This document shows positions 3-63,886 of a DNA stretch of 64,000 nucleotides, in pieces. The DNA is taken from the sequence record NC_054934.1; one strand, given 5' to 3'. Positions within the stretch are counted from its first letter, which is position 1, and each line of letters starts with the position of its first letter. Both the position numbers and the translations under genes were made by a program. Source of the stretch: Escherichia phage teqskov. The notes under the pieces are model-generated. The model had not been told where the DNA came from, did no database searches, and worked only from the letters and a program-made list of their open reading frames with translations.

Positions 3-566
3 ATGTTCTATTTCAAGAACTTCGTATCCACATCGCTTAAACCAAATATCTTCGGTGAGCATGGTAAAAACTATATGGCTCTAGATGATTCCGGCGCAGT
101 ATTTTCTGGTGAAGGAGAAGGTTCCGTTGATGCAGAAGATTTGATGCATATGGGTAGTCATTCTACATATGCTAATGAAGATGCTGAAACTAGCATGGGT
201 ATGGTAATTAAAGGAGCTGAGCGAATCAAAGTTATCGTTCCAGGTCATTTATCAGGATTTCCATCAGAAGCTGAAGTTATTCTACCACGTGGAATTTTAC
301 TGAAGATTAATAAAGTGAGCACGTACATGATGAAAGAAACTGCTTATAATAAGTATCTAATCGAAGGCACAATCGTTCCTCCTTCTGAGCAATTAGAAGA
401 ATCAGTATATGATGGCGATCATTTGATGGAAACTGGTGAAGTTCGTCCAATGGCTGGATTTAATCAATTCCTTGTAGAAGAATCAAAAGAAGAGGAAAAC
501 GAAGTTTCTCAAATCTTGGCTTCTTTGGTTAACATCAACGGAATGTCTAAAAAGTTCAAGATGTAG
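3..566 (+). CDS. alt: C-terminal part of a larger protein continuing upstream of the window; probable ADP-ribosyltransferase Alt
   Basis: ORF open to window start; PSEAEVILPRG resembles the E-x-E catalytic motif of ADP-ribosyltransferases; position next to gene 54 matches T4 alt synteny. Confidence 0.45.
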   Translation: MFYFKNFVSTSLKPNIFGEHGKNYMALDDSGAVFSGEGEGSVDAEDLMHMGSHSTYANEDAETSMGMVIKGAERIKVIVPGHLSGFPSEAEVILPRGILLKINKVSTYMMKETAYNKYLIEGTIVPPSEQLEESVYDGDHLMETGEVRPMAGFNQFLVEESKEEENEVSQILASLVNINGMSKKFKM

Positions 567-626
567 TTTACAAGTCCCTCGTGTTGTGTTATAGTAATCT
601 TACTGACATAACATGAGGAACACAAA

Positions 627-7202: not shown

Positions 7203-7214
7203 TATTTATAAATA
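7203..7214. promoter_or_regulatory. bidirectional late promoter palindrome TATTTATAAATA (genes 51 and 26)
   Basis: TATAAATA late-promoter consensus present on both strands in one 12-bp palindrome between divergent late genes. Confidence 0.6.
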
Positions 7215-9183: not shown

Positions 9184-9212
9184 GGCCCTTCCTTTTCGGT
9201 TGGGCCTTTTTT
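9184..9212 (+). terminator. terminator-like hairpin followed by T-run after the uvsY operon
   Basis: GGCCCTTCC...GGTTGGGCC then TTTTTT. Confidence 0.5.
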
Positions 9213-9215
9213 AAT

Positions 9216-9446
9216 TTAAAAGCTTTCTTCTACTTCATCGTCTGAATCTTCTAATTCAGCTCTTTTTCCTGCCAAAGCATCTCTCACAGAGATGTCATCA
9301 GTATCTTTTAATTCAGTTTCTTTAACTCTTTTCTTATAATAAGCTTCAAGTTCTTCTAAACCTTCTAATGTTTGACAAGAGGCAATTTTACCCATAAATT
9401 CATCAATAGAAGCTTCATAAAGAAATTGTTTAAATTCTAGTAACAT
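9216..9446 (-). CDS. uvsW.1: UvsW.1-like small acidic protein
   Basis: ORF-track start is a TTG at 9458; first ATG at 9446 gives about 76 aa; lies directly downstream of uvsW in a different frame. Confidence 0.6.
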   Translation of the reverse strand: MLLEFKQFLYEASIDEFMGKIASCQTLEGLEELEAYYKKRVKETELKDTDDISVRDALAGKRAELEDSDDEVEESF

Positions 9447-9471
9447 CTTTTTCTCCAAAGGGCCGAAGCCC

Positions 9472-10983
9472 TTATAAATTAACTGTTTTCATTACGTAAT
9501 TAAATTTTTCATCTGCGTAGCGCTGAATACGATCAATGCCATGTTTTAAAAGATAGTTCAAATGAACGTATTTCTTTTTCGTATTAGCAGATTTTGGTTT
9601 AACACCGCAATCATCGATGAGGTCCCAGACCGTTGCGATTGTTTTAGAACCATGCTTACGTAATACGCGACCTATTGTTTGCAATACAATAATTTTAGAT
9701 TTAACACCGTGCGCTAAAACAACGTGATGCAGATTTTTAACTGAAATACCAGTAGAAAATACACCATAACTAGCTACTATAATTATTCCTTTACCATTTT
9801 CAGCTAAGGTTTTCATTATATTGCGGGTTTCGGTATCAACTTCCCCTGATACGTAATAAACTTTATCGTATTCATTTTTAATTAAATCGAAAATAGCTTT
9901 ACCATGTGATACATGTTTAAACATGACAAAAGCGTTTTCATCTTTTTGCGCAAGCTTAATAGCTAATTTAGCGATCCATTTATTTCTTTTACTAAGCCCA
10001 GTAATAATTTTTATTTCTTCTTGATAAGTTTTTCCCTTTAATTTAGTAGTGAACTCATCTGGATAGCGAAGAAAAATACTATTAATTTTTAGCTCAGTTA
10101 CTTGTCCATCTTCCATTAATTTAGAAGTCGTTACTGGCTTAAATATTTCACCAAACATTCCAACATACTGCATGATATTAGCTTTGCCATCACGTAATGA
10201 ACCTGATAGACCAAATTTAAACATACAGTTATTTAATCCTGATATGATAGATGAAATACTTTTTCCTGTAGCAAGATGGCATTCATCATTCATCATCATT
10301 CCAAATTGTGAGAACCATTCTTTTGGTTGTTTTACTACAGTTTGCCATGTACCAACAACGACTGGTGCATCATTTTTATATTTATCATCTTTTGATGCTC
10401 CGCCGCCAATTTTCTTTATCATTGCATGGCTGAATAAACGATAGTCGACGAAGTCATCAGCCATCTGAGTTGTTAAGGCAGTTGTTGGAACAATGATAAG
10501 AATTTTACCTTCATAATTTTCCAAATAATATCGCGCAAGCAAAGCTTGAATTAAAGATTTACCTGCAGATGTTGGAAGATTAAGAATTCTACGACGATTA
10601 ACTAATCCTTCGAACACTGCATCTTTTTGATACCAGTGCGGTTCAATTCTTTTATTTCCTGAATAGATTTCTAATTTAGAAAGCCATTCATCAAAATCTT
10701 TTCTTGATAATTCTTCTTTTTCGTTAATTTGCGGGTCAATCCAGGCTTTATAGCCAAAGTTATCACAGAACTTTTTAATTTGCCCGACTAAGCCGAATGG
10801 AAGAAGACGATTATAATCTAAAAGACGGATTCGTCCATCCCAGTGGCCATATTTGTATTTCGGATTAAAACGATACCCATCAGCTTCAAAGCTAAAGAAA
10901 TCACGGAGTTCATGAAATGTACTTTCTTCACAATCAATTCTCACGTGACTAAAATCATAAAAATGTACTTTAATGTCAGTCAT
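9472..10983 (-). CDS. uvsW: UvsW DNA/RNA helicase (SF2)
   Basis: 503 aa; helicase motifs (GKS Walker A, DECH); synteny inh-uvsW. Confidence 0.85.
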   Translation of the reverse strand: MTDIKVHFYDFSHVRIDCEESTFHELRDFFSFEADGYRFNPKYKYGHWDGRIRLLDYNRLLPFGLVGQIKKFCDNFGYKAWIDPQINEKEELSRKDFDEWLSKLEIYSGNKRIEPHWYQKDAVFEGLVNRRRILNLPTSAGKSLIQALLARYYLENYEGKILIIVPTTALTTQMADDFVDYRLFSHAMIKKIGGGASKDDKYKNDAPVVVGTWQTVVKQPKEWFSQFGMMMNDECHLATGKSISSIISGLNNCMFKFGLSGSLRDGKANIMQYVGMFGEIFKPVTTSKLMEDGQVTELKINSIFLRYPDEFTTKLKGKTYQEEIKIITGLSKRNKWIAKLAIKLAQKDENAFVMFKHVSHGKAIFDLIKNEYDKVYYVSGEVDTETRNIMKTLAENGKGIIIVASYGVFSTGISVKNLHHVVLAHGVKSKIIVLQTIGRVLRKHGSKTIATVWDLIDDCGVKPKSANTKKKYVHLNYLLKHGIDRIQRYADEKFNYVMKTVNL

Positions 10984-11033
10984 GTCTAAATACCATGTAA
11001 TAAATATATCTATATTTATACTGAGGAAATATT

Positions 11034-11714
11034 ATGATAGATAAAGATTATATTGCAGAGCTGAAGGCTCTTGATGATAATAAAGAAGCTAAAGCTAAAT
11101 TAGCTGAATACGCTGAACAGTTTGGTATAAAGGTCAAAAAGAATAAATCTTTTGATAATATCGTTGTTGATATTGAAGAAGCCCTCCAGAAGCTCGCTAG
11201 TGAACCTATGCCAGAGACTGATGGGTTATCTATTAAAGACTTAATTGATGCTGCTGATGCCGCAGAGGGATTAAAATATGACGATGGAGAAGTCAATCCA
11301 GAAGCAGCACTTCTGATTGATTCTCCGGTTAAATCTGACATTAAAATTGAAGTAGTAGAAACGGATAAAATTCCTGAAAATACCGATGTTTTGATTGAAG
11401 ATACTCCCTTTGTTGAAGAAAAATTTGAACAGGCTGTAGCTGAGATTATTGAATCTGAAAAGCCGTCTGTATTTACTCTTCCAGAAAACTTTAGTCCGAA
11501 TCTTCAACTGATTGGAAAAAATCCAGGATTCTGTACTGTTCCTTGGTGGATTTATCAATGGATTGCTGAAACTCCTGATTGGAAATCTCACCCAACTAGT
11601 TTTGAACATGCGTCAGCACACCAAACTTTATTTAGTTTAATTTATTACATTAACCGTGACGGATCAGTTTTAATTCGTGAAACACGCAATTCTTCTTTCG
11701 TAACATTAAAATAA
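11034..11714 (+). CDS. inh: inhibitor of prohead protease Inh
   Basis: 226 aa as T4 Inh; synteny next to hoc. Confidence 0.7.
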   Translation: MIDKDYIAELKALDDNKEAKAKLAEYAEQFGIKVKKNKSFDNIVVDIEEALQKLASEPMPETDGLSIKDLIDAADAAEGLKYDDGEVNPEAALLIDSPVKSDIKIEVVETDKIPENTDVLIEDTPFVEEKFEQAVAEIIESEKPSVFTLPENFSPNLQLIGKNPGFCTVPWWIYQWIAETPDWKSHPTSFEHASAHQTLFSLIYYINRDGSVLIRETRNSSFVTLK

Positions 11715-13142: not shown

Positions 13143-13148
13143 TCATAA

Positions 13149-13168
13149 GGGGCTTCGGCCCCTTTCTT
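13149..13168 (+). terminator. rho-independent terminator after hoc (GGGGC-TTCG-GCCCC then TTTC)
   Basis: UUCG tetraloop hairpin plus T-rich tail. Confidence 0.65.
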
Positions 13169-53802: not shown

Positions 53803-53843
53803 TGATAAGGGGCTTCGGCCCCTATTACTTGGAGTAAGTAGGA

Positions 53844-63475: not shown

Positions 63476-63858
63476 AATTCAGCGACTTTTCACAAAGTGG
63501 AAAACCTTCAAAGGCAGATGAATACTTAGGTTTATTAATGGCTGCACAAGCTTATTTTCATTCTGCACATTTTGAAACTAAAAGTTATGCTAGACACAAA
63601 GCATACGATTTTATTTTCTCCGAGTTGCCAGATTTGATTGATAAATTTGGTGAGCAATATTTGGGGTATTCTGGTAGAAAATACACACCTTCAATTCCAG
63701 ATGCCAGTAAACTTCCTACCGACACAATTAAAATGATTGATCGCATACTAGACCAATCTAACAGCATTTATAAAGAAATGCCTCCAGCCATTCAAAGCAC
63801 GATAGATGATATTACTGGAATGTTTTACCAGAGTAAGTATCTTCTTTCCCTCGAATAA
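63472..63858 (+). CDS. hypothetical protein (128 aa, rI.1 position)
   Basis: ATGA overlap with rI; followed by terminator. Confidence 0.55.
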   Translation: MKFSDFSQSGKPSKADEYLGLLMAAQAYFHSAHFETKSYARHKAYDFIFSELPDLIDKFGEQYLGYSGRKYTPSIPDASKLPTDTIKMIDRILDQSNSIYKEMPPAIQSTIDDITGMFYQSKYLLSLE

Positions 63859-63862
63859 CATT

Positions 63863-63886
63863 AGTCTCCTTCGGGAGACTTTTTTC
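63863..63886 (+). terminator. rho-independent terminator (AGTCTCC-TTCG-GGAGACT then TTTTT)
   Basis: stem-loop with UUCG loop and T-run. Confidence 0.75.

Follow-up and report, generated by a model that had tools for sequence, protein, structure and literature searches.

The boundary between uvsW and uvsW.1 in Escherichia phage teqskov (sequence record NC_054934.1) raises a question of gene organization: does the hairpin-bearing junction separate two genes, or does it interrupt a single one? The stretch of DNA analysed, called the window below, covers 64,000 nucleotides of this genome. According to the initial annotation, the split could reflect two genuine proteins, a frameshift mutation or sequencing error, or else programmed frameshifting or termination–reinitiation helped by the hairpin; resequencing of T4 was taken to have revealed one continuous polypeptide. 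The junction is in fact an ordinary, already documented boundary between two T4-type phage genes. Very probably, uvsW and uvsW.1 are distinct late genes transcribed together, their junction is correct in the window, the UUCG hairpin between them is typical of a known class, and the fusion found in an old T4 record is an error. The main features of the region are collected in Table 1.

Table 1. Features of the uvsW–uvsW.1 region, with their positions in the window.
Feature	Position	Strand	Basis or context
T4-type late promoter box TATAAATA	11013..11020	minus	about 30 nt upstream of the uvsW ATG
uvsW, SF2 DNA helicase, 503 aa	9472..10983	minus	ORF, Pfam, PDB match
RNA hairpin AAGGGC-UUCG-GCCCUU, C(UUCG)G tetraloop	9458..9473	minus	sequence and folding
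Shine-Dalgarno (SD) GGAG of uvsW.1	9453..9456	minus	read directly from the sequence
uvsW.1, 76 aa, acidic, three-helix protein accompanying UvsW	9216..9446	minus	ORF, PF11637, 2JPN identity
Stem-loop GGCCC...GGGCC, predicted bidirectional terminator	9184..9206	none	between converging uvsW.1 and uvsY.-2

Both genes of the junction are encoded on the minus strand. The 503-residue helicase ORF (10983..9472) had been correctly delimited from the start, its stop codon being TAA (9474–9472). Its Pfam domains are UvsW_N (E = 3.9e-43), ResIII/DEAD and Helicase_C. Residues 2–502 of T4 UvsW in PDB entry 2OCA match it with E = 0, and the end of that chain coincides with the stop codon in the window, the C-terminus reading ...YADEKFNYVMKTVNL. 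The ORF adjoining uvsW on the same strand, 25 nt downstream, had also been rightly described as acidic, 76 residues long and placed in another frame: its ATG occupies 9446–9444, in the +1 frame relative to uvsW. This ORF carries the UvsW.1 domain PF11637 (Pfam, E = 1.5e-30) and is 100% identical to T4 UvsW.1 as deposited in the NMR entry 2JPN, a structure solved for the free-standing 76-residue protein. The palindrome had been accurately placed at 9460–9471; the 13 nt first given for the gap is the distance from hairpin to ATG, and the intercistronic gap itself measures 25 nt (9471–9447). Within this gap, the GGAG motif is separated from the uvsW.1 ATG by a 6-nt spacer (AAAAAG) and from the hairpin stem by a single nucleotide, and an SD-like motif also precedes the uvsW.1 start in relatives.

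The TATAAATA sequence upstream of uvsW is the sole late promoter box preceding the pair. Because no such TATAAATA box lies between the two genes, they appear to be co-transcribed late genes. Ribosomes would terminate at the UAA codon 9474–9472 and uvsW.1 would be translated from its own start site, made of GGAG, the 6-nt spacer and AUG 9446, yielding products of about 58 kDa for UvsW and about 9 kDa for UvsW.1. Since this GGAG-N6-ATG start site belongs to uvsW.1 itself, termination–reinitiation is not needed. As regards the relation between the two products, UvsW.1 has reportedly been found by Nelson and Benkovic to bind UvsW and to inhibit its annealing activity, and an artificial UvsW–UvsW.1 fusion made by the same authors is said to still unwind DNA. 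For T4 and five related phages, Nolan et al. 2006 (PMC1524935) reported a conserved bidirectional terminator, predicted to lie past the end of uvsW.1, and the annotation of OL960581.1 gives terminators on both strands at the position of the stem-loop listed in Table 1.

All the features that define the UvsW plus UvsW.1 two-gene module of T4-like phages (Straboviridae) are present in the window. The junction sequence is identical to that of the newer T4 genomes (OZ209023.1, OL964735.1), including the stop codon, the hairpin, the SD and the start codon, and the flanking genes are the same, with inh upstream and uvsY.-2, uvsY.-1, uvsY, 25, 26 and 51 downstream. T4 UvsW is nearly identical to its counterpart, which has 503 residues versus 502 in T4 through one extra N-terminal residue; T4 has in addition the segE homing-endonuclease gene before uvsW, which is missing from the window. 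The window thus represents a close relative of T4 rather than T4. More generally, the 72-nt junction of the window was recovered at 99% identity or more in 407 of 497 phage records, among which are the independently deposited T4 records OL964735.1 and OZ209023.1.

The comparison was extended to 79 related loci, 63 from IMG/VR and 16 from GenBank, the latter comprising two T4-type records and 14 loci from other species or genera (at least 12 named genera and one unclassified phage). In all 79, uvsW and uvsW.1 are separate ORFs, with no fusion, and the gap between them ranges from −4 (an ATGA overlap) to +66 nt. Frame offsets of 0, +1 and +2 were called automatically in 15, 17 and 31 IMG/VR loci, respectively, two of the +1 calls being start-codon miscalls that probably correspond to +2. 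The junction caller also placed the start codon or the uvsW stop wrongly in four IMG/VR loci (L033, L038, L056 and L064); L033, L056 and L064 were inspected by hand, the L038 junction is the same as that of L033, and none of the four is a fusion. Upstream of uvsW.1, its frame stays open for at most 138 nt in the compared loci. At the protein level, all 75 UvsW.1 homologous clusters are 52–96 residues long and carry PF11637 only, and a search of 5.8 billion proteins with UvsW.1 retrieved none longer than 96 residues. A weak match to UvsW.1 (E = 2e-4) was seen at the N-terminus of a 295-aa protein of Vibrio phage EniLVp02.

The option of two genuine proteins is thus the one borne out by these 79 split loci and by the separate structures 2OCA and 2JPN. 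Two observations had been named beforehand as pointing to an ordinary two-gene organization, namely an independently confirmed stop codon and the same arrangement in related phages. Both were made: the stop recurs in the 407 records, OL964735.1 and OZ209023.1 included, and the two ORFs recur in the 16 GenBank and 63 IMG/VR loci. The fusion belongs to the erroneous original T4 record.

The hairpin itself has a core GGGC-UUCG-GCCC at 9471–9460, which extends to a full stem of 6 bp (9473–9458). The loop, first read as CGAA, is UUCG in the mRNA, the former being the antisense reading. The TAA stop codon contributes its final two bases to the outer A-U pairs (9473/9472 with U9458/U9459). A free energy of −8.8 kcal/mol is predicted for the 16-mer, and partition-function folding in a 141-nt context gives pairing probabilities of 0.74–0.98 for the six stem pairs. 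The centroid structure of these 141 nt keeps three short helices only, the UUCG hairpin being the sole one at the junction. Comparison of the minimum free energy of the 76-nt junction with shuffled sequences gave z = −0.65, a non-significant value that is uninformative for a 16-nt element. The exact 12-mer of the hairpin occurs three times in the window, with further copies at 13150 and 53810, versus 0.02 expected; in 100 shuffles, a count of three was never attained. This recurrence is more than chance. Counting near-identical versions with a long stem, five C(UUCG)G hairpins are present in the window, following uvsW, hoc, the major capsid gene and two other ORFs, all of them 0–13 nt past a sense-strand stop codon. 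The copies after hoc, after the major capsid gene and after the ORF ending at 63858 have T-rich tails and resemble true terminators. Sequestration of the uvsW.1 SD, or a riboswitch-like control of the gene, was considered and rejected, the pairing of GGAG being weak, G-U-rich, heterogeneous and absent in phage F2.

The UUCG tetraloop was first found in T4 mRNA (PMC4371310). Judged from its sequence, the junction hairpin belongs to this known class of T4 mRNA C(UUCG)G tetraloops, described by Tuerk et al. in 1988 as summarised in PMC4371310 and in bioRxiv 10.1101/2022.08.31.505936. It shares with them the UUCG loop, the C:G closing pair and the short GC stem, as well as the intercistronic position on the sense strand and the occurrence of several near-identical copies per genome. 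No structural difference separates it from the class, the junction copy being followed by three U and then directly by the SD of the next gene. With regard to its function, the class and position of the hairpin point most likely to a 3′ stabiliser of the RNA or to a leaky terminator. The class is known for an unusually high thermodynamic stability, and for the junction copy the corresponding values are the predicted ones given above. Such an autonomous stem-loop, predicted to be very stable, would shield the uvsW message from 3′-to-5′ exonucleases, and it would be at most a weak, leaky terminator or pause site. Like intrinsic terminators, it is a GC-rich stem-loop at the 3′ end of a cistron; unlike them, it has a U-tract of 3 nt only and is followed by a co-transcribed gene without a promoter of its own. 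The tail UUUGGAGA (UUUGGAG) contains three U, where an intrinsic terminator is expected to have at least about five in eight positions, and a local terminator scan of the window did not call the junction hairpin. The annotation of OL960581.1 nevertheless lists it as a terminator predicted by TransTermHP and WebGeSTer, so that weak or leaky termination may occur. A literature search for maps of T4 RNA 3′ ends gave nothing usable.

Comparison with relatives provides another view of this element. The hairpin is identical in phage F2 despite a DNA identity of 79% over the uvsW region and differing flanks, and a compensatory change from G-C to A-U is found in the Krischvirus version. Each lineage with a gap of at least 25 nt has its own, unrelated hairpin immediately past the uvsW stop. 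These observations speak for selection on structure. Unrelated hairpins have been gained at the same junction in at least five lineages; placing an RNA structure between the genes of the helicase and its partner may therefore bring a modest benefit that recurs. Most genera have no hairpin at the junction, with gaps of −4 to +10 nt, and its function is therefore dispensable for the gene pair. A further observation concerns the SD region of uvsW.1, GGAGAAAAAGA, which agrees with the RegB/S1 consensus GGAGRAYARAA at 9 of 11 positions; a RegB cut at this point would leave a uvsW mRNA ending at the protective hairpin. However, late mRNAs reportedly escape RegB, uvsW goes unnamed in the RegB study, and the agreement is noted here as a remark only.

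Several other readings of the junction have to be weighed against two separate genes. That the split arose by a frameshift mutation, or by an assembly or sequencing error in a naturally fused gene, could be argued from the 587-aa fusion given by AF158101.6, NC_000866.4 and UniProt P20703, the latter still at 587 residues in a 2014 review table. This fused version, however, is found in only 2 of the 497 records, the identical AF158101.6 and NC_000866.4, whereas 407 independent genomes share the junction of the window, which excludes the mutation or error contemplated by the initial annotation. Moreover, all distant relatives have two ORFs, UvsW and UvsW.1 were solved as separate products, the former by crystallography and the latter by NMR, and the literature designates the fused version as the error (PMC1524935, PMC6486255), which leaves this explanation a negligible likelihood. 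Programmed +1 or −1 frameshifting before the stop, stimulated by the hairpin, would also join the ORFs, and it could take advantage of a uvsW.1 frame (+1) with 14 open codons before the ATG and of a stable hairpin lying immediately downstream. The 20-nt overlap AAAACAGUUAAUUUAUAA (A AAA CAG UUA AUU UAU AA) nevertheless contains neither an X XXY YYZ nor a shifty-stop motif, and no CUU-UGA preceded by an SD, as in prfB, is present. A −1 shift would lead into the wrong frame, with a stop after 13 codons. The hairpin begins inside the stop codon, and the 5–9-nt spacer typical of −1 stimulators is missing. Relatives display offsets of 0, +1 and +2, overlaps and in-frame stops; these three offsets together with gaps from −4 to +66 nt exclude a conserved frameshifting. 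Without a slippery motif and with a frame offset that varies among relatives, the programmed frameshifting suggested earlier is unsupported, and appears extremely improbable.

A more elaborate possibility is translational hopping of the gene 60 type, where peptidyl-tRNA-Leu would leave UUA (9477–9475) at the UAA codon, skip the hairpin and land on UUG (9458–9456) or UUA (9443–9441), both in the uvsW.1 frame, giving a minor fused UvsW–UvsW.1 product. Four features of T4 gene 60 bypassing are indeed present: a stop that follows the last decoded codon without a gap, a stem-loop tipped by C-UUCG-G and beginning at the stop, a matching codon downstream (UUA-UAA, then UUG and UUA) and an SD-like sequence in the gap. 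The UUA/UUG after the stem is, however, an automatic by-product of the pairing of the 3′ arm with UAA. In the F2 clade, where the hairpin is identical, the sequence from the post-hairpin UUA reads GGA GAU AAA AAU GGU ACU UGA and stops out of frame; in both F2 and the IMG/VR locus L023, landing leads to a stop after 7 codons and uvsW.1 starts with AUG GUA or AUG AUA, so the landing frame, in contrast to gene 60, is not conserved in relatives. The take-off UUA lies outside the 6-bp stem, and only weak G-U extensions in the minimum free energy structure include it. The SD spacing is also wrong, GGAG being 9 nt from the landing UUA instead of 5–7 nt and overlapping the UUG landing codon. No known nascent-peptide signal like that of gene 60 is evident in the C-terminal sequence of UvsW, the ORF downstream begins at a start codon of its own and yields a separate protein, and uvsW does not appear in a comprehensive recoding review. 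Hopping thus seems highly unlikely, and the hairpin is not a recoding signal. Translational coupling is somewhat different in that it keeps the two products apart: after UAA, a 30S subunit or a ribosome would reinitiate, with the aid of the hairpin, at the uvsW.1 AUG 25 nt downstream. At its foot, the stem pairs 9473/9472 of the stop codon with U9458/U9459, and GGAG follows after a single nucleotide, so that the refolded hairpin would set the stop beside GGAG, mimicking the packing of stop, SD and start seen in hairpin-less relatives. Classic coupling arrangements do occur in relatives, as ATGA and TAATG overlaps or as TGA/TAA followed directly by GGA/GAGG with the ATG 6–9 nt later, and coupling would hold the UvsW:UvsW.1 ratio fixed, as expected of partner proteins. 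On the other hand, uvsW.1 is itself equipped with a complete SD and spacer, and this SD does not lie in silico in a stable or conserved structure requiring upstream translation, its pairings being weak, of the G-U type and absent in F2. Coupling is rather unlikely; it is compatible with two separately initiated genes, a mechanism that it would supplement and not replace. In the T4-proper clade, either a minor hopped fusion of about 67 kDa, made by a small share of the ribosomes stalled at the UAA within the UUCG stem, or, less exotically, a termination–reinitiation coupling kept by the hairpin across the 25-nt gap could tune the proportion of free to tethered UvsW.1, a very improbable scenario in which this ratio would set the annealing versus unwinding behaviour of the helicase.

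With uvsW and uvsW.1 considered as two genes, the T4 reference record owes its 587-aa UvsW to a sequencing error. The initial annotation had reversed the actual course of events: the fused ORF is the old record, and resequencing split it (PMC1524935, PMC6486255). Five other T4-like genomes have two ORFs, and T4 resequencing confirmed two ORFs (Nolan et al. 2006, PMC1524935); the corrected uvsW/uvsW.1 pair appears in Kerr et al. 2007 (J Biol Chem 282:34392), as cited in PMC6486255. AF158101.6 reads TTTA-ATAAGCTTCGGCCC, versus TTTATAAGGGCTTCGGCCC in the window, in T4 OZ209023.1 and in vB_Eco_Some. Every one of these differences affects the stop codon or the hairpin's 5′ arm, and on balance 1 nt is lost. 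The stable hairpin thus probably caused the old reference to join the two genes, likely by band compression at its GC-rich stem on sequencing gels, as judged from the confinement of the differences to this 5′ arm and from the one-base loss. The small addition made here is that the historical T4 error maps exactly onto the 5′ arm of a UUCG hairpin, a probable case of a very stable hairpin corrupting gel-based sequence. The main value is one of correction. AF158101.6 and NC_000866.4 still carry the fused uvsW CDS of 1764 nt, and any new T4-like genome compared with the T4 reference will meet the same apparent frameshift again. Through annotation transfer, the 76-aa UvsW.1 is called 'DNA helicase' in hundreds of genomes.

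The junction between uvsW and uvsW.1 is an ordinary, previously documented two-gene boundary that carries an RNA hairpin of a type known from T4. The initial annotation observed it accurately, but its interpretation rests on a reversed account of T4. The additions made here are small: the historic fusion error coincides with a hairpin arm, other lineages repeatedly have unrelated hairpins at the same junction, and the old fusion lives on as the label "DNA helicase" given to UvsW.1 in many records. Direct reading of the sequence confirmed the coordinates first assigned to both ORFs and to the palindrome. From 9489 to 9438 (minus strand, 5' to 3'), the codons AAA ACA GTT AAT TTA and the stop TAA are followed by GGGC TTCG GCCC, TTT, GGAG, AAAAAG and then ATG TTA CTA. 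The uvsW stop and the uvsW.1 start are 25 nt apart, with uvsW.1 in the +1 frame relative to uvsW; the 13-nt gap first described is only the hairpin-to-ATG distance, and the CGAA loop is an antisense-strand reading of the mRNA loop UUCG.

Features of the uvsW–uvsW.1 region, UUCG hairpins of the window and junction hairpins of other lineages
Feature	Position	Strand	Details
Late-promoter box	11020-11013		TATAAATA; ~30 nt 5' of uvsW ATG
uvsW ORF	10983..9472	-	503 aa; stop TAA 9474-9472
UUCG hairpin, full stem	9473-9458	-	6 bp, AAGGGC/GCCCUU, two stop-codon A paired with two U; after uvsW, then next cistron's SD
Palindrome	9460-9471		mRNA sense GGGC-UUCG-GCCC
GGAG (SD of uvsW.1)	9456-9453	-	1 nt past stem, 6 nt ahead of ATG
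uvsW.1 ORF	9446..9216	-	76 aa; ATG 9446-9444
Predicted bidirectional terminator stem-loop	9184-9206		3' of uvsW.1
UUCG hairpin	13147-13164	+	after hoc; T-rich tail, terminator-like
UUCG hairpin	16109-16090	-	after major capsid gene; T-rich tail, terminator-like
UUCG hairpin	53808-53823	+	after 197-aa ORF; then next cistron's SD
UUCG hairpin	63863-63880	+	after 128-aa ORF; T-rich tail, terminator-like
Krischvirus hairpin			AGGGGC-UUUAAU-GCCCCU
Krischvirus E26 hairpin	2157-2201 (locus L011)		AGGGAC...GUCCCU; compensatory double change
L044, L045, L058 hairpins	near 560-600
L059 hairpin	near 560-600		AGCCUAC-UGAAA-GUAGGCU, then U-run
L060 hairpin	near 560-600		GAGGC-AAAAA-GCCUC
L081 hairpin	near 560-600		12-bp stem

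The 503-aa product matches T4 UvsW (PDB 2OCA) over its full length and contains the UvsW_N, ResIII/DEAD and Helicase_C domains; the 76-aa product shares 100% identity with T4 UvsW.1 (PDB 2JPN, NMR) and contains the Pfam UvsW.1 domain PF11637. The flanking genes follow the T4 order, with inh upstream of uvsW and uvsY.-2, uvsY.-1, uvsY, 25, 26 and 51 downstream. The homing-endonuclease gene segE, present in T4 (AF158101.6, OZ209023.1; 348-965 in locus L003), is absent 5' of uvsW in the window (10984-11060, uvsW-inh). Since segE is missing and the best 2-kb match in a set of 50,697 phage records reaches only 98.6%, the window comes from a close T4 relative (Tequatrovirus) outside that set and not from T4 itself; its UvsW has 503 aa, versus 502 in T4. 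The uvsW gene looks like a hotspot of mobile endonucleases: segE adjoins it in T4, phages G28, Metamorpho and KLB2 have annotated genes for group I intron, GIY-YIG or HNH endonucleases within or beside it, and it lies in pieces (gp114, gp114.1 and gp115) in Salmonella phage S16 (locus L006, 1-2193). The UvsW.1 C-terminus (window 9216-9260) is an acidic tail with an invariant last Phe (...EEDF or ...EESF) in 14/14 aligned homologues, and can be likened to the acidic tails found at the C-terminus of SSB-type proteins. As UvsW is reported to bind the gp32 acidic tail, according to a summary in PMC5314882, the UvsW.1 tail might compete for the same site.

The initial annotation had resequencing of T4 yield one continuous polypeptide, whereas the reverse is true: the fused version is the old record, and resequencing split it into uvsW and uvsW.1 (PMC1524935; PMC6486255). 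Nolan et al. (PMC1524935) reported two ORFs in five other T4-like genomes, and also that crystallography showed UvsW without the UvsW.1 part; the correction is dated to a 2007 work, as cited in PMC6486255. A 2014 review table gives UniProt P20703 as 587 aa. AF158101.6 still annotates a uvsW of 1764 nt (587 aa), with a note on "sequence discrepancies". The error was mapped by aligning the window, AF158101.6, the newer T4 assembly OZ209023.1 and vB_Eco_Some, which differ at a single spot: AF158101.6 reads TTTA-ATAAGCTTCGGCCC where the other three read TTTATAAGGGCTTCGGCCC. The differences are confined to the stop codon and the hairpin's 5' arm, with a net loss of one base, which removes the TAA and brings uvsW in frame with uvsW.1; the fused length is accounted for by 502 + 9 (linker ISFGPLEKK) + 76 = 587 aa. 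Band compression on sequencing gels classically arises from GC-rich, very stable hairpins, from which we infer the probable origin of the T4 error. Among 497 matching records, the fused version is limited to AF158101.6 and its RefSeq copy NC_000866.4, and the stop is confirmed by independent genomes, the 72-nt junction of the window being found at ≥99% identity in 407, among them OL964735.1, a T4 record deposited independently. In a large share of T4-like records, UvsW.1 (76 aa, no helicase domain) bears the name "DNA helicase" or "ATP-dependent DNA helicase uvsW" (e.g. OZ209023.1 CDS_0176, NC_054913.1 gp194), presumably a legacy of the fused annotation of AF158101.6 and NC_000866.4.

The junction was further extracted from 16 GenBank loci, together with 63 IMG/VR loci that a UvsW.1 profile retrieved. 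Two GenBank loci are T4-type records, and the other 14 come from relatives belonging to different species or genera: at least 12 named genera (Tequatrovirus efftwo, Karamvirus, Biquartavirus, Gelderlandvirus, Gaprivervirus, Marfavirus, Dhakavirus, Krischvirus, Kanagawavirus, Jiaodavirus, Pseudotevenvirus, Ceceduovirus) and one unclassified phage. In every one of these loci, uvsW and uvsW.1 are separate ORFs. The gap is -4 (ATGA), -1 (TAATG), 5-10 nt (built as stop, SD such as GGA, GAGG or AGG, and ATG) or up to 25-66 nt. Automatic calls place the frame offset at 0, +1 and +2 in 15, 17 and 31 IMG/VR loci, the +1 calls of L033 and L038 being start-codon miscalls, probably +2. Upstream of uvsW.1, its own frame stays open for 138 nt at most, and all 75 UvsW.1 clusters retrieved from 5.8 billion proteins are 52-96 aa long with PF11637 alone. 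No natural UvsW–UvsW.1 fusion was found in the 79 loci or the 75 clusters; the frame relationship is not conserved, and there is no slippery site. The programmed frameshifting initially envisaged thus loses its basis: in the window a -1 shift leads into the wrong frame, the overlap available for a +1 shift (A AAA CAG UUA AUU UAU AA) holds no known shift motif, and uvsW is absent from a comprehensive recoding review.

Ribosomes could instead hop from UUA at the UAA over the stem to a downstream in-frame codon, as in T4 gene 60, since the last uvsW codon is UUA, the UAA lies inside a UUCG-tipped stem, and UUG (9458-9456) and UUA (9443-9441) follow in frame. The likeness to the gene 60 take-off and landing arrangement is superficial, however. 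A post-stem UUA/UUG arises automatically when the 3' arm pairs with UAA, the strong stem does not include the take-off codon, the SD spacing is unsuitable and, in the F2 clade, which has the same hairpin, landing is out of frame with a stop after seven codons; hopping is very improbable.

Vibrio phage EniLVp02 (L017, 2150-3037) has a 295-aa protein, annotated as DNA helicase, with a weak match to UvsW.1 at its N-terminus (tblastn E = 2e-4, 41% identity); in this distant relative, the UvsW.1 domain may be truly fused to another protein. In L064 (520-600; IMGVR_UViG_2974786931_000001), the 120 nt inspected 5' of uvsW.1 are unlike the UvsW C-terminus, and the local arrangement may differ, e.g. 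by an insertion between uvsW and uvsW.1.

T4 mRNA is where the UUCG tetraloop was originally observed (PMC4371310), and the junction hairpin belongs to this same class. The window contains three exact copies of the 12-mer GGGCTTCGGCCC (9460, -; 13150, +; 53810, +) for 0.02 expected. A scan for long-stem UUCG hairpins returned five, AAGGG(G/A)C-UUCG-G(C/U)CCCUU or similar, all on the sense strand and 0-13 nt past the stop of a long ORF (4-13 nt for those other than the junction hairpin). The predicted fold gives -8.8 kcal/mol for the 16-mer and stem-pair probabilities of 0.74-0.98 within 141 nt, where the centroid structure keeps three short helices only, the UUCG hairpin being the sole one at the junction.

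Comparison with relatives points to selection on the RNA structure. In F2, the uvsW region has only 79% DNA identity to the window, yet the hairpin is unchanged base for base; the differences lie in the spacer and SD region (TTAGGAGATAAAA vs TTTGGAGAAAAAG). Every lineage with a gap of at least 25 nt has its own unrelated hairpin right after the uvsW stop in the GenBank and IMG/VR loci, including at least four lineages besides that of the window, with gaps of 43-66 nt (E26, L044, L045, L058, L059, L060, L081). A compensatory G-C to A-U change distinguishes the stems of E26 and L044. Most other genera have a gap too short for any structure. RNA structure at this junction is thus optional, yet, as judged from sequence comparison, it is gained independently and repeatedly.

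With one upstream late promoter, no TATAAATA box between the two genes and a predicted terminator after uvsW.1, the two genes are most likely co-transcribed late. We infer that ribosomes would stop at UAA and that uvsW.1 would be initiated from GGAG-N6-AUG, in keeping with the separate UvsW and UvsW.1 proteins that have been solved. By analogy, the hairpin would most plausibly block 3' exonucleases, and it may also cause pausing or weak termination by RNA polymerase; in both cases, somewhat more uvsW than uvsW.1 message would result. TransTermHP and WebGeSTer predict a terminator at the place of this hairpin in OL960581.1, but the U-tract has three residues only, which argues against efficient termination; the local terminator scan of the window did not call the hairpin. 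Translational coupling is another possible contribution, in which the stem would set the stop codon beside the SD. The uvsW.1 ribosome-binding region (9446-9456, minus strand; GGAGAAAAAGA) agrees with the RegB/S1 cleavage consensus GGAGRAYARAA (PMC1702504) at 9 of 11 positions. As this site was coding under the old fused annotation, it was probably left out of the intergenic GGAG sites tested for RegB. The window holds 23 TATAAATA boxes versus 9.8 expected, and two of them overlap on opposite strands at 7203-7214, in the short gap of the divergent genes 51 (-) and 26 (+).
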